Assembly: GCA_003599635.1 (NCBI GenBank)
Contig: QZIX01000009.1
Span: 407-64,406, forward strand
Source: Candidatus Parcubacteria bacterium
Lineage (GTDB): Bacteria; Patescibacteriota; Patescibacteriia; Buchananbacterales; SURF-54
Direction of reading: 5' to 3'
Length of the DNA stretch: 64,000 nt
A program made the translations under genes and the position numbers. Shown here one piece after another: positions 1 to 44,892 of this stretch. The notes beneath the pieces are model-generated. The model did no database searches, had not been told where the DNA came from, and was given only the letters and a program-made list of their open reading frames with translations. Positions within the stretch are counted from its first letter, which is position 1; each line of letters begins with the position of its first letter.

Positions 1-1
1 T

Positions 2-1306
2 GTTTTATCAGTTCCTGACGAAGAGCAAAATTTCATTCTTTATCTGCCCCTGAAGGGTAGGATATTGAAAGTCAATTCCGGTGTCATTAACTTGCTTAAG
101 GATTTTGAAGAAACGGGTCAATTTCCTGAAAGTGAAATCAAACAAAAATTATTGGAGAAAGGAGTGCTAGTAGTTGAGCCAGAATCTGACCCGTGTGCTG
201 ATCATGAAATAACAACCGAGCATAAACCAACCTCTGTAACGTTATTCCCTACCAGCGACTGCAATTTGCGCTGTATTTACTGCTATGGATGTGGTGGTGA
301 GACCAGCTTTTACCTTGGTTGGCAAGTGGCTAAGGCAGCGATTGATTTAATTATCGCCAATGCCTTAGAAATCGGACTTGATAAAGTTTCAGTCAATTTC
401 CATGGTGGCGGTGAACCGTTCTACGGTAAGGCCTGGCTTTTGATGCAGCAGACAGTGGATTACACTAGACGAATGGCAGAAAAAAACCATTTGAAATGGT
501 CTGCCGCAGCCGCCACTAACGGTATATTATCGCAGGAGAAAAGGGAATGGATTATAAATAATCTTAAGCGCGTGAACCTTTCTCTCGATGGTCCAAAAGA
601 AATTCAGAACAAACAGCGTCCTTTGCGAAACGGCGGACCGACTTTTGAACAAGTAACAGAAACCATAAGGTTTTTTGAGGCGAATAAATATGAGTATGGT
701 TTAAGAGCTACGGTCACGCGTGAAAGTTGTGAGAGGATGGCCGAGATATACCAATTTATTAGCTCAATTACTAGTCTTAAAAGATTTCACTTAGAGCCTT
801 TGTGGGAAATTGGCCGTAGTCTTACCAACAATCTTAAGGCGCCTGATCCTGATTTGTTTCTTCGTCAAATTTTAAGGGTGATTGAAATGGCGGAAAGAGA
901 AGGAGTAGAGATATATTTTTCTGGCAAAAGATGTAAGGAGCTGGGAGATGTTTTCTGTGGTGCTGCGGGCAAGAATTTTTTTATCACGCCGCAAGGGGAT
1001 GTTACTTCCTGTATTGAGGTGAACCAGATAGCCGATCATAGATCAGCCGTGTTTTTCTATGGCAGGTTTAACCTAGAGACTAATTGTTTTGAGTTTGACT
1101 CAAATAGGTTGCTTAACTTACGTCGCAGGAGGACACAAAATTTGCCACACTGCCAGGACTGCTTTATCAAATATGGTTGCGCTGGTGATTGTCTAGCAAA
1201 GGGTAAAGGGGAGAGCATCTTTGACACTAGTATGAATCCTCGTTGTTTGATAAATCAAGGGGTAAGTTTTCATCAATTGCGAAAAGAAGTGGAGGTGGTA
1301 CAATGA
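2..1306 (+). CDS. radical SAM / SPASM-domain peptide-modifying enzyme (5' end probably cut by window edge)
   Basis: CNLRCIYC is the CX3CX2C radical SAM cluster motif, and GGGEPF is the SAM-binding motif. C-terminal Cys clusters are SPASM-like (CGAAGKNFFITPQGDVTSC; CQDCFIKYGCAGDC). The ORF track starts at TTG 65, but this frame has no stop back to nt 2. Stop TGA 1304-1306 overlaps the next ATG. Confidence 0.85.
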   Translation, partial: VLSVPDEEQNFILYLPLKGRILKVNSGVINLLKDFEETGQFPESEIKQKLLEKGVLVVEPESDPCADHEITTEHKPTSVTLFPTSDCNLRCIYCYGCGGETSFYLGWQVAKAAIDLIIANALEIGLDKVSVNFHGGGEPFYGKAWLLMQQTVDYTRRMAEKNHLKWSAAAATNGILSQEKREWIINNLKRVNLSLDGPKEIQNKQRPLRNGGPTFEQVTETIRFFEANKYEYGLRATVTRESCERMAEIYQFISSITSLKRFHLEPLWEIGRSLTNNLKAPDPDLFLRQILRVIEMAEREGVEIYFSGKRCKELGDVFCGAAGKNFFITPQGDVTSCIEVNQIADHRSAVFFYGRFNLETNCFEFDSNRLLNLRRRRTQNLPHCQDCFIKYGCAGDCLAKGKGESIFDTSMNPRCLINQGVSFHQLRKEVEVVQ

Positions 1307-1701
1307 ATAATTTTAGGCTCAAAAACATCAAAAGGCCAACAATGCCTGAACAGCCAGCCATACTGGTAGATAAGAGTTTTAAGGCAGAAGATAAACCACC
1401 GCAGGATGCAACTTTCAAATTTCTTTTTTGCAAATGTGATGACCATCGTTACTGTGCTTGTGAAAGTCATAGACACACGCCGTTTACTGGTTGTTCGAGC
1501 GATTGTAGTCATCACGGTTGGTCGTGTGATTGTGATAAGGAATGCCATTGCGACGGTCAGTGCCAGTGTGAGAACTATTGCTCTTGTGATTCTCAATGCA
1601 AACATTGTCGATGTGTATCTGATTGTCGATGTGAAAGTTATGGTGGATGTGGTGGGTATGAGCCGGGATGTAATTGCAATGTGATTAATGTAGATTACTA
1701 A
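1303..1701 (+). CDS. Cys-rich putative RiPP precursor peptide (132 aa)
   Basis: ATG 1303 overlaps the maturase stop (ATGA), with GGAGGTGG at 1291-1298. It is in the same frame as track ORF 1243..1701. The N-terminal 42 aa lack Cys. There are then 22 Cys between aa 43 and 125, including nine CxC doublets. Confidence 0.6.
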   Translation: MNNFRLKNIKRPTMPEQPAILVDKSFKAEDKPPQDATFKFLFCKCDDHRYCACESHRHTPFTGCSSDCSHHGWSCDCDKECHCDGQCQCENYCSCDSQCKHCRCVSDCRCESYGGCGGYEPGCNCNVINVDY

Positions 1702-1820: not shown

Positions 1821-1859
1821 AAATGAGACACTAAAGCACCCTTTTATAGTGTCTCATTT
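1821..1859 (+). terminator. hairpin with 13-bp perfect stem downstream of precursor gene (possible terminator)
   Basis: aaatgagacacta (1821-1833) pairs with tagtgtctcattt (1847-1859) around a 13-nt loop. The right arm gtctcattt is repeated directly at 1860-1868. The large loop and weak T tail lower confidence. Confidence 0.35.
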
Positions 1860-7061: not shown

Positions 7062-8864
7062 ATGATTAATAAAATCCGAAACATTGCCATCATAGCCCAT
7101 GTCGATCACGGCAAAACCAGCCTGACCGATGGTTTGATGCGCCAGACCGGTGCCGTGGAAGAAGGTTTTACCATGGATACAAACGCTTTGGAACTTGAAC
7201 GCGGCATAACCATTTATTCAAAAAATGCTTCCATATTTTATAAAGACACAAAGATAAATATCGTAGACACTCCGGGCCATGCTGATTTCGGGTCGGAAGT
7301 GGAACGCGTGCTGCGCGCAATTGACAGCGTAATTCTGGTCGTTGATGCCCAGGAAGGCCCGATGCCTCAGACCAAGTTCGTCTTGAAAAAATCTCTGGAA
7401 TTAGGTTTACGGCCGATTGTCGTTATCAATAAAATCGACAAGCCTGCGGCACGTCCGGAATGGGTGCATGAAAAAATACTGGAGCTCTTTTTTGATCTGG
7501 GAGCCAATGAAGAACAGTTAAACTTTACCACGCTTTATGCCGTTGCCAAACAAGGGATTGCCAAATACAAACCCAGTGACAATAATTCGGATTTGACGCC
7601 GCTTTTGGATACGATTTTGGAAAAAGTCAAAGAAGCCGCTTCGGGCGAACTTATGATTAAAAAAGCCAGATTTCAGCCGTTTAATTTGGGCTATGATAAT
7701 TATATGGGCCGGCTGGCCGTTGGCAGAATTTATGAAGGCAATTTAAAGGCAGGCCAAAACGTATTTGTAAAAAATGAAGCCGGACAAATCCGCCAGGGCA
7801 AAATTTTAAAAATTTTCACCTTTAGCGGTTTAAAAAGGCAGGAGACAGAAGAAGCTTTTGCGGGCGACATTGTGATACTTGCCGGGCTTTCTGGCATTAA
7901 TATCGGCGAAACCGTCTGCGAGGATAAGGAACAAATGCCTTTGCCGGCGATAAAAATCGACGAGCCGACGATATCGTTGAATTTTTTGGTCAATAATTCT
8001 CCTTTTGCGGGAAAAGAAGGCCGTTTCGTTACCAGCCGGCAGATTAAGGAACGGCTGGAGAAAGAACTGGAAATTAACGTCGGTTTAAAAATTGATTTTT
8101 CTTCAACTGAGTATTATAAAGTTTTCGGTCGTGGCGAACTGCACATCGCGATTTTGCTGGAAAACATGCGCCGCGAAGGTTACGAGCTTCAGGTTTCCCA
8201 GCCGCAGGTGATTATTAAGGAAGAAAACGGAGCCAAGCTGGAACCGTTTGAAGAATTGACAATTGATGTTCCCAAGGAAATGTCGGGTTTGGTAATCGAA
8301 AAAATTTCGCAGCGAAAAGGAATTTTAAAAAATATGGAAAACGAAAAAAATCTGTGCCGTCTGATTTTTGAAGCGCCGACACGCGGTATTTTGGGCTACC
8401 GCAGCCAGTTTATAATTGACACGCGGGGCGAAGGCATATTGTGTTCGCAGGTCGTCGGGTTTAAACCTTACGCCGGTGAAATCAGCCGGCAGAGATTCGG
8501 TTCCATGATATCCATGGCAACCGGAAAAGCGCTCGGGTTTTCATTATACAATTTGCAGGAAAGGGGAATACTTTATATCGGTCCCGCCGTCGATGTTTAC
8601 GAAGGACAAGTGATAGGCAACACAGCCAAGGGTGACGACATGTCCGTGAACCCGACCAGAGGAAAACATCTGACCAATATGCGCTCCAAATCCAGCGACG
8701 AAGCAATAATTTTGACTCCGCCACTTGAACTGACCTTGGAAAACGGGCTGGAAATAATGGCCGACGATGAATTTCTTGAAATTACGCCGCAAAACATCCG
8801 TTTAAGAAAACAGTTGTTAAAGGAAATTGACAGGGTCAGGGCGTACAGAACAGCAGTTGAATAA
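7062..8864 (+). CDS. typA: translational GTPase TypA/BipA
   Basis: AHVDHGKT (G1), DTPGH (G3), NKID (G4), and a length and domain order typical of BipA. Confidence 0.95.
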
Positions 8865-43936: not shown

Positions 43937-44767
43937 ATGCTGATTGACACCCATGCCCATCTTAATTTTAACGCTTTCAAACAAGATTCGGAAAAAATAA
44001 TCGATGGTTGTCTTAAGGAAAATACCTGGATGATAAATGTAGGTTCGCAGTTTAGCACCAGTAAAAGAGCTGTTCATATCGCCGAAAATTATAAGCAAGG
44101 GGTCTATGCGTCAGTCGGTTTGCATCCAATACATTTATCAGTCCTTGAAATTGACGAAGCCGAAACAGGAAAGTTAATTACTGCAGCTGAAAAATTCGAT
44201 TATCAAAAATATAAAGAATTAGCCGGGTCTTCAAAAGTTGTTGCTATCGGGGAAATCGGGCTGGATTATTTCCACATTAATCCTGACGACGAGGAAAATA
44301 AAAATAGGCAAAAGCAAACTTTTAAAAAACAACTGGCTTTGGCAGAAGAATTAAAACTTCCGGTTATTTTACACTGCCGAAATGCTTACGATGAAATGCT
44401 GAAAATATTGCAGTCGACAGCCAACAGGCAATCAACAGACAACGGAGTGATACATTGTTTCGGTGGTACTTTAAAACAGGCACAAGAATTTATACGATTA
44501 GGTTTTTGCATAGGTTTTACCGGCATAATAACTTTCGGTAAAAAAGCCGAAGATCTGGTTAAGGTAGTTTCCCTCATACCTATGGAAAAAATACTTGTGG
44601 AAACTGATTGTCCTTATTTGGCTCCGGAACCTTTTCGCGGTCAAAGAAATATGCCTCTGTATGTAAAGTATGTTGCTGAAAAAGTTGCTAAAATTAAGGG
44701 AATAGAATACAATAAAGTTGTGGAAAAGACTTCGGAAAATGCCATTAATTTATTTAATTTGCATTAG
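43937..44767 (+). CDS. tatD: TatD family metal-dependent hydrolase
   Basis: IDTHAHL, GEIGLDY, ILHCR, HCF.G and ETDCPYL motifs. Confidence 0.9.
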   Translation: MLIDTHAHLNFNAFKQDSEKIIDGCLKENTWMINVGSQFSTSKRAVHIAENYKQGVYASVGLHPIHLSVLEIDEAETGKLITAAEKFDYQKYKELAGSSKVVAIGEIGLDYFHINPDDEENKNRQKQTFKKQLALAEELKLPVILHCRNAYDEMLKILQSTANRQSTDNGVIHCFGGTLKQAQEFIRLGFCIGFTGIITFGKKAEDLVKVVSLIPMEKILVETDCPYLAPEPFRGQRNMPLYVKYVAEKVAKIKGIEYNKVVEKTSENAINLFNLH

Positions 44768-44772
44768 GCATT

Positions 44773-44892
44773 ATGCCTAGACCAAAAGATCCTTGCCCCT
44801 GCGGTTCAGAAAAGCCCTATGGCTCCTGCTGCGGCGCTGCCGAACCTTGCGATTGCGGTTCAGGACAACCGGCGGGCGAATGTTGCTACTAA
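44773..44892 (+). CDS. SEC-C motif small metal-binding protein (39 aa, below ORF-track cutoff)
   Basis: Translates to MPRPKDPCPCGSEKPYGSCCGAAEPCDCGSGQPAGECCY. PCPCGS.K.Y..CC is the SecA C-terminal zinc motif, followed by a second degenerate copy. Confidence 0.55.
   Translation: MPRPKDPCPCGSEKPYGSCCGAAEPCDCGSGQPAGECCY

Follow-up and report, generated by a model that had tools for sequence, protein, structure and literature searches.

A stretch of 64,000 nucleotides (the window) from a 162-kb contig of a metagenome-assembled genome of Candidatus Parcubacteria, a member of the candidate phyla radiation (CPR), opens with a gene for a radical S-adenosylmethionine (radical-SAM) enzyme with a SPASM domain, and this gene is followed directly by a cysteine-rich open reading frame (ORF) at 1303–1701. 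Comparison of the two sequences with those of their relatives makes it very likely that the Cys-rich product is the precursor of a ribosomally synthesised peptide with post-translational modifications (RiPP) and is modified by a radical-SAM enzyme. We think it probable that this precursor is multiply cross-linked through thioethers by the adjoining enzyme. The nearest characterised relatives of this putative maturase are Cys-thioether synthases, which makes a thioether-scaffold RiPP the leading reading; as to the modification itself, analogy with these enzymes tips the balance towards formation of non-α thioethers.

The cysteine-rich peptide and its homologues

Translation of the forward strand at 1303–1701 gives a product of 132 residues, MNNFRLKNIKRPTMPEQPAILVDKSFKAEDKPPQDATFKFLF-CKCDDHRYCACESHRHTPFTGCSSDCSHHGWSCDCDKECHCDGQCQCENYCSCDSQCKHCRCVSDCRCESYGGCGGYEPGCNC-NVINVDY, in which a Cys-free leader precedes a Cys-rich core. 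Residues 43–125, which correspond exactly to nucleotides 1429–1677, contain 22 Cys among 83 residues (27%). An earlier reading of the letters, made without database searches (the sequence-only reading), had counted these 22 Cys, nine CxC doublets and an exact register between residues 75 and 98, all of which are recovered: the doublets are CKC, CAC, CDC, CHC, CQC, CSC, CRC, CRC and CNC, and the Cys pairs 75/77, 81/83, 87/89 and 93/95 keep a perfect six-residue spacing. It had also described the spacers as dominated by Asp, Glu, Gln, Ser and His. The commonest non-Cys residues in this region are Ser (9), Asp (8), Gly (8), His (7) and Glu (5), so that Ser, Asp, His and Glu are indeed prominent, but Gly, which had not been listed, is as frequent as Asp.

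Shuffling of the sequence identifies which features of the array depart from chance. The autocorrelation of Cys is 11 at lag 6 against 4.8 expected (z 3.6), and 0 at lag 1 against 5.1. CC pairs are absent from residues 43–125, where 5.6 are expected, an outcome seen in 0.055% of shuffles (P ~0.0006). The number of CxC doublets is by itself mildly high (9 versus 5.5 in composition-matched shuffles, P 0.045). The motif C-x-C-[DE] occurs seven times against 0.8 expected, a count reached in 0 of 20,000 shuffles. Tandem Repeats Finder detects no DNA tandem repeat beneath the array, so the Cys periodicity is a property of the protein and does not reflect a recent expansion of a DNA repeat.

Homologous precursors were compared in an alignment of 29 close-clade sequences, with a separate alignment, A2, serving for column conservation. 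The leader has the consensus (K)P-x-[FY]-R-L ... P-x-I-I ... [DE]-[RAQ]-T-F, which may also be written xxxPxxRL...PxII...DRTFC, and the window peptide conforms to it with FRL, PAIL and DATF. The core is built of C-x-C-[D/E/N]-x-x units. Its Cys number varies from 6 to 22 while the leader is conserved, and the family thus has the conserved leader and variable core of RiPP precursors. Among the 29 precursors a Cys–Cys spacing of 2 (118 cases) or of 4 (99 cases) predominates, and Asp, Glu or Asn follows the CxC doublet in 83 of 118 cases. In alignment A2, C83 and C93 are invariant, and C87, C89 and C95 are present in at least 90% of sequences. In more distant bacterial clades the leader still begins with KP[ND]DR and the CxC-x3 hexad is kept; in these, Ser or Thr lies between the Cys residues, Asn, Val, Asp, His or Gln follows them, Val is found at +3, and the peptides end in CRCAPVH or YWYPN/C.

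The bacterial gene clusters (L016–L047 and L049–L071; for example L016 2456–7245 and L050 2421–7222) are larger, comprising a small PqqD-like protein that bears a twin-arginine signal, a SPASM enzyme and a peptide with CxC-x-x-V repeats, together with a tetratricopeptide repeat (TPR) protein and a B12-binding radical-SAM enzyme. In Bacteroidota clusters a large secreted protein occurs instead. At L065, L072, L077 and L085, three tandem SPASM paralogues stand ahead of one Cys-rich peptide gene, which suggests a division of labour among tandem maturases. Two precursors are of odd construction (L020 4244–4936 and L007 4728–5063): one has a long Thr/Pro-rich repeat (TPTDTPT...) before its CxC core, and the other a hydrophobic, membrane-anchor-like tail, GCLSLLIGIVGAGYEIYKLIEYL.

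Evidence for a genuine peptide gene

The ATG of the Cys ORF (1303–1305) overlaps the TGA stop codon of the maturase gene (1304–1306) as ATGA, and a Shine–Dalgarno-like sequence lies just upstream (Table 1). The ratio of non-synonymous to synonymous substitution rates (dN/dS) was calculated for homologous peptide genes from other genomes, in five pairs of paralogues or orthologues. In the Cys frame it is 0.18–0.41 in four of the five pairs, the synonymous sites of the fifth being saturated. The two alternative sense frames give values of ~0.7–2.2, about 1, and low values are found elsewhere solely in the antisense frame that has the same codon phase as the Cys frame. Taken together, these features of sequence indicate that the Cys ORF is a genuine, conserved peptide gene, coupled translationally as well as physically to the radical-SAM/SPASM gene upstream. 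To this extent the sequence-only reading is supported.

That reading had also listed three ORFs on other frames and strands and explained them by the array. All three exist (Table 1), and they are best regarded as by-products of it: stop codons are absent across the core in the +1 frame and in one antisense frame, and the shadow-frame translations are low-complexity strings of Val, Ile and Thr. The idea that the Cys ORF is a chance, non-functional frame and that an overlapping ORF is the true gene could draw on the Joint Genome Institute (JGI) annotation of the contig, which picks the +1-frame ORF (L086 8890–9168, equivalent to window 1406–1684), and on the absence of the exact 132-residue product from a collection of 15 billion proteins, but it is extremely improbable in view of the low complexity of those frames, the confinement of purifying selection to the Cys frame and the antisense frame of the same phase, the start/stop overlap and ribosome-binding site at the Cys ORF, and the retention of leader and core motifs across archaea and bacteria.

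The radical-SAM/SPASM maturase

The window start cuts off the first eight codons of the maturase gene. The complete protein has 442 residues (GenBank RJR31569.1), and the whole gene is found at 7462–8790 of L086, a JGI-annotated stretch of the same contig. Pfam assigns to it the families Radical_SAM and Fer4_12. The CX3CX2C motif (C87/C91/C94) and exactly seven SPASM Cys residues, in the pattern C-x12-G-x4-C ... C-x2-C-x5-C-x3-C ... C, are invariant in 63 maturase homologues. QhpD, CteB and Tte1186 likewise have seven SPASM Cys (PMC10352776). The AlphaFold2 model (pLDDT 94) has at its N-terminus a domain of three strands and two helices (β3-α2) that resembles the RiPP recognition element (RRE), and this RRE-like domain is predicted to bind the conserved leader. 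The radical-SAM motif, the Cys ligands for SPASM auxiliary clusters and a predicted RRE domain, as found in RiPP maturases, are therefore all present in this one chain.

The best match in the PDB, by fold as well as by sequence, is CteB, the SCIFF thioether synthase, with a TM score of 0.75 over the full length, an E value of 2e-18 and an identity of ~18–19% in the structural alignment. The next structural neighbours are anSME, ChlB, TigE and SuiB. Among NCBIfam profiles the highest scores are those of PapB (114 bits), nif11-peptide radical-SAM (109) and SCIFF maturase (96), followed by DynA, CXXX-repeat, CcpM and CefB. The enzyme falls below the curated cut-off of every NCBIfam family that it matches, and seven of its relatives, drawn from archaea and bacteria, give similar profile results, all below the cut-offs.

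Conservation and spread of the enzyme–peptide pair

Relatives of the maturase were collected from the protein collection at E ≤ 1e-10 and from 185,579 species-representative genomes, one per species of the GTDB. The protein collection yields 227 relatives, none more than 48% identical to the window enzyme, and the enzyme clade is present in ~200 of the genomes, with 197 stretches encoding a relative. For 80 species loci we asked for a CxC-rich ORF on the same strand, ending within 1 kb downstream of the enzyme gene, and such an ORF is present at 51 of them; the background of CxC-rich ORFs is 0.033 per kb across six frames. At several of the other loci the ORF lies behind extra SPASM paralogues or upstream of the enzyme, or the locus is cut by the contig end. 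In all close relatives inspected the genes are adjacent and co-oriented, with one to four peptide copies per locus. To judge from these loci, the pairing is conserved across many phyla.

The best maturase matches are from DPANN archaea (Pacearchaeota, Woesearchaeota and Nanoarchaeota) and one Paceibacterota. Lower-ranked matches are from Bacteroidota, Desulfobacterota, Planctomycetota, Acidobacteriota, Chloroflexota, Nitrospirota, Firmicutes and others. Among genome records of isolates a relative is present in two, those of Desulfobacter curvatus DSM 3379 and of a Nocardia sp.; no CxC-rich peptide was found at the Nocardia enzyme locus. Most of the matches listed in a metagenome scan with the enzyme alignment are more distant enzymes, of <35% identity and without CxC peptides, which suggests that the CxC association is specific to the closer clade.

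The closest relatives of the cassette span the boundary between bacteria and archaea. In the DPANN archaea the identity of the enzyme to that of Pacearchaeota is 47%, and the core string CDSQCKHC[R/I]CV is common to the window peptide and a Woesearchaeota paralogue. The G+C content of the cassette is 41–42% and that of the window 39.6%. There are hints in these sequences of transfer of the cassette between the ultra-small CPR and DPANN lineages, and the cassette is among few candidate natural-product cassettes in such genome-reduced bacteria and archaea.

Annotation and database searches

The choice of a shadow frame by JGI has a parallel in the GenBank annotation of a relative, in which the shadow frame was chosen for one of four tandem copies (L001 5417–5647). 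Since gene callers tend to pick the Val/Ile-rich shadow frame, the precursor family is systematically under-annotated. The accession numbers of the window enzyme (RJR31569) and of a downstream DUF5320 protein (RJR31571) imply that GenBank holds one annotated coding sequence, RJR31570, between 1306 and 2205; the protein collection contains none of six candidate translations for it (three Cys-frame starts and three shadow ORFs).

Among 5.8 billion protein clusters, a profile built from a 24-sequence peptide alignment recovered only 8 proteins, most of which the loci had already supplied, and a word-index search with the single window peptide gave no matches. The sole phmmer match among 1.84 billion representatives, a 1566-residue repeat protein, was rejected as non-homologous, since it matches through its Cys/Asp/Glu composition. 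No Pfam or NCBIfam model matches the window peptide or nine diverse relatives at E values up to 1–10, in keeping with the earlier statement that the periodicity could not be placed in a known family. No NCBIfam peptide model matches the window peptide at E ≤ 1. Neither a metallothionein nor any other Pfam model matches the whole peptide or the core alone at E ≤ 10, with the reservation that very weak matches may be lost to the HMMER filters. Curated models are lacking for the peptide and for the enzyme clade alike. Full-text searches of the literature gave no published description of a CxC-hexad peptide family; a paper on metallothioneins and RiPPs was set aside because it deals with DUF692 peptides, a different system. 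If our reading holds, a widespread enzyme–peptide family is largely missing from protein databases.

Proposed chemistry

In the thioether reading, the Cys-free leader of ~42 residues would dock on the RRE-like domain of the enzyme, presenting the 90-residue core of C-x-C-[D/E/N]-x-x units to the active site. At an auxiliary [4Fe-4S] cluster, a Cys thiolate of the core would bind to the iron site that is open, the 5′-deoxyadenosyl radical would take hydrogen from a nearby residue, and an S–C thioether would result, the reaction iterating many times along the array. The Asp, Glu or Asn next after each CxC doublet would be the best candidate acceptor. Counted from the first Cys of the doublet n would be 2, and from the second 0, so that the rings would be of the small Cys-Xn-Asp/Glu type. 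The peptide so formed would be acidic, compact and polycyclic and would resist proteases. With approximately two Cys per acidic acceptor, some thiols would probably stay free, and these leftover thiols, with His and carboxylates, could serve in disulfides or in metal binding.

This scheme is modelled on characterised relatives. PapB forms Cys-Xn-Asp/Glu thioethers with n = 0–6 (PMC9413430). In PapB and Tte1186 the substrate Cys or selenocysteine ligates the auxiliary cluster before the S–C bond forms (PMC10177961), and in PapB, CteB/Tte1186 and QhpD the Cys sulfur is joined to a β or γ carbon (PMC10352776, PMC11002830). The chemistry of these relatives, the binding of substrate to the auxiliary cluster and the ring range of PapB make iterative thioether formation the most likely modification. 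The sequence-only reading had likewise proposed many Cys-to-acceptor cross-links. The relatives of the maturase support that part of its proposal, but the PapB-type C-x3-D motifs that it invoked are not enriched, and the conserved unit is C-x-C-[D/E/N]-x-x. If the scheme is correct, the C-x-C-[D/E] geometry would add to the ring sizes known in nature from enzymatic thioether macrocyclisation. The compact two-gene system is also suited to testing how SPASM radical-SAM enzymes process up to ~22 Cys per substrate.

Several observations weigh against thioether formation. The C-x3-[DE] motif typical of PapB substrates occurs twice in the window peptide against 3.3 expected in shuffles. There being two Cys per hexad, one thioether for each acidic residue cannot use all of the thiols. 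In the wider superfamily Asn, Val, His or Gln often follows the CxC doublet, with Val at +3, and an Asp/Glu acceptor is consequently not a requirement throughout; the universally conserved feature of the peptides is the Cys pair and not an acceptor. No conserved protease, transporter or exporter, or regulator is found near the cassette in the close clade. The chemistry is taken from the relatedness of the enzyme, its relatedness to PapB is distant (114 bits against a cut-off of 340), and similarly related SPASM enzymes form C–C and C–O links, epimerise residues and oxidise Cys.

We can also envisage, speculatively and as an unlikely outcome, that the CxC-hexad peptides and their SPASM enzymes make up a new RiPP class, with a radical-SAM chemistry that has not been described, distributed over a dozen or more bacterial phyla as well as CPR bacteria and DPANN archaea. 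Each hexad might then carry two sulfur links, giving a ladder-like, hyper-cross-linked rod or, alternatively, the modified thiolate array might assemble a metal or iron–sulfur cluster. In ultra-small symbionts such a peptide could then serve in interaction with the host or in the handling of metals and redox.

A metal-binding peptide is the first of the alternatives to be weighed. It might be an unmodified, metallothionein-like protein or, compatibly with cross-linking, a RiPP whose spare thiols, His and carboxylates build metal–thiolate sites, acting as a metallophore or metal buffer for Zn, Cu, Cd or Fe, so that its function would be metal binding and not that of a rigid scaffold. CxC is a classic metallothionein motif, the core at residues 43–125 combines its 27% Cys with 7 His and 13 Asp/Glu, and the ratio of about two Cys to each candidate acceptor makes free thiols likely even after cross-linking. 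The sequence-only reading had offered a metallothionein-like peptide as its second proposal; this finds no positive support, and we judge metal binding as the primary function to be unlikely. Zero Pfam or NCBIfam models, those for metallothioneins included, match at E ≤ 10, the CC pair common in metallothioneins is lacking, and a conserved leader of 42 residues that is free of Cys, together with the obligatory pairing to a radical-SAM maturase, is a trait of a RiPP and not of a metallothionein. Nor was any metal transporter or metal regulator seen linked to the cassette in close-clade loci.

The peptide might instead be a RiPP precursor subject to some other radical-SAM chemistry, such as α-carbon sactionine formation, Cys oxidation or heterocycle formation, epimerisation, or C–C and C–O cross-linking of Tyr, His or Trp, with the Cys residues acting mainly as cluster ligands or in disulfides. 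Transfer of function is unsafe where, as here, the enzyme scores below all curated family cut-offs. Moreover anSME, ChlB, TigE and SuiB, its structural neighbours after CteB, perform different chemistry, and the bacterial clades conserve Val at +3 as their non-Cys residue and have extra enzymes (the B12-type radical-SAM enzyme and further SPASM paralogues). We nevertheless consider this explanation rather improbable: PapB, the CteB/SCIFF maturase and QhpD, the three closest by profile and structure, all make Cys-derived thioethers and share the seven-Cys SPASM pattern, and Cys is the sole feature kept in every substrate.

Other features of the window

Coordinates of the cassette and its associated features are collected in Table 1. 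The inverted repeat downstream of the peptide gene has a folding free energy of −16.9 kcal/mol (z −4.5 relative to shuffles), and the sequence of its 3′ arm, TGTCTCATTT, is repeated immediately after the hairpin. The hairpin may act as terminator for the two-gene operon; a simple terminator scan did not list it.

Table 1. Coordinates of the cassette and associated features in the window
Feature	Position	Strand	Remarks
Putative radical-SAM/SPASM peptide maturase gene	1..1306	+	First 8 codons just upstream of window; frame 2 open from nt 2
Shine–Dalgarno-like sequence GGAGGTGG	1291..1298	+	Read from sequence; GGAGG part ends 7 nt before peptide ATG
Predicted precursor peptide gene	1303..1701	+	132 aa + stop; from translation, start/stop overlap and homologues beside homologous maturases
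Leader region, aa 1–42, Cys-free	1303..1428	+	From alignment of 29 close-clade precursors; motifs FRL (aa 4–6), P-A-I-L (aa 18–21), D-A-T-F (aa 35–38)
Core region, aa 43–132	1429..1698	+	22-Cys array within 1429–1677
Exact hexad register CDCDKE CHCDGQ CQCENY CSCDSQ, aa 75–98	1525..1596	+	Aligns with the near-invariant CxC..CxC..CxC block of the family
Shadow ORF, +1 frame, 92 aa, Val/Ile-rich, not a gene	1406..1684	+	JGI call L086 8890–9168; dN/dS mostly ~1 or higher (0.70–2.2) in relatives
Antisense shadow ORF, 110 aa, not a gene	1273..1605	-	Stop-free across Cys array
Further antisense shadow ORF	1227..1433	-	One of the three shadow ORFs
Perfect 13-nt inverted repeat	1821..1859	+	120 nt after peptide stop; arms AAATGAGACACTA / TAGTGTCTCATTT; TTTGTCTCATTT follows

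The cassette is preceded by hypothetical genes and followed by a DUF5320/DUF134 pair and by a glycosyltransferase gene on the opposite strand; none of these surroundings looks dedicated to the enzyme and its peptide. The pair, at 2205–2804, consists of a DUF5320 gene (81 residues) and a DUF134 gene (95 residues, with a helix-turn-helix like that of σ70 region 4), separated by a strong terminator-like hairpin at 2456–2479; two near-consensus promoter-like sites lie at 2133–2219. The pair is treated as an unrelated neighbour; no link to the peptide system was seen in other loci. No Rfam families were found in the window.

Some 4.4 kb upstream of the window start (L086 2042–3097, minus strand) there is a second, shorter radical-SAM/SPASM gene, of 351 residues. 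It is surrounded by methyltransferase, NUDIX, DegT aminotransferase and epimerase genes, and no CxC-type Cys-rich ORF was seen beside it. Within the window, the forward reading frame at 44758–44889, just after a gene for a 276-residue protein, contains PCPCGSEKPYGSCCG and CDCGSGQPAGECC, which we take to resemble metal-binding motifs of the SEC-C type. The ORF from its Met (MPRPKD...) is shorter than 40 residues, and this frame is unrelated to the CxC family.

Comparison with known systems

The PapA/PapB ranthipeptide system (freyrasin) resembles the window cassette in having a repetitive core rich in Cys and Asp beside a SPASM enzyme with an RRE, and PapB is the best NCBIfam match. The PapB ring range covers the C-x-C-[D/E] geometry of the window peptide. 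The window enzyme, however, scores 113.7 bits against the cut-off of 340 (NF047865), and its relatives score 107–157. The repeating unit, C-x-C-[D/E/N]-x-x, places two Cys in every six residues and differs from C-x3-D, the leader is unrelated, and the hosts are CPR bacteria and DPANN archaea.

With the SCIFF systems (CteA/CteB and Tte1186a/Tte1186) the cassette has in common its minimal two-gene form, an enzyme and a Cys-rich peptide without a linked protease or exporter. CteB is the nearest solved structure by sequence and fold, the N-terminal domain included, and has the same seven SPASM Cys. It differs in that the enzyme scores 96.2 bits against 425 (TIGR03974), while the window peptide has 22 Cys in 83 residues, compared with six in ~45 for SCIFF, and matches no NCBIfam peptide model.

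A SPASM maturase together with a Cys peptide of fixed period is likewise characteristic of the CXXX-repeat (TIGR04115), Cys-every-fifth CefB (NF038107) and CcpM (TIGR04068) families, to which the window enzyme gives significant partial matches below the cut-offs (80.2 versus 350, 77.5 versus 600 and 78.3 versus 500, respectively). Going by the NCBIfam names, the periods of the CXXX-repeat and CefB peptides are 4 and 5, whereas that of the window peptide is 6, with a CxC doublet. We found no experimental paper on any of the three families in the literature that we searched.

QhpC/QhpD, which concerns the γ subunit of quinohemoprotein amine dehydrogenase, is similar in its SPASM enzyme, and the QhpD model matches relatives of the window enzyme at 1e-22 to 1e-31. 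QhpD forms Cys–Asp and Cys–Glu thioethers (PMC11002830). The cut-off of its model is 453 bits, whereas the window enzyme reaches 60 and relatives reach at most 109; the substrate in the window is a free-standing repeat peptide, and no amine dehydrogenase genes lie near the cassette. Metallothioneins share with the window peptide a very high Cys content, CxC motifs, small size and spacers with His and Asp/Glu, but not its conserved leader, its radical-SAM linkage or its lack of both CC pairs and matching models (E ≤ 10).

Overall, the sequences indicate that the window system works in the manner of the ranthipeptide and SCIFF systems, a SPASM radical-SAM enzyme being paired with a peptide of periodic Cys, which is an already known kind of pairing. 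What sets it apart from them is a CxC-hexad architecture, a leader of its own, a minimal cassette of two genes in CPR bacteria and DPANN archaea, and near-absence from annotation.

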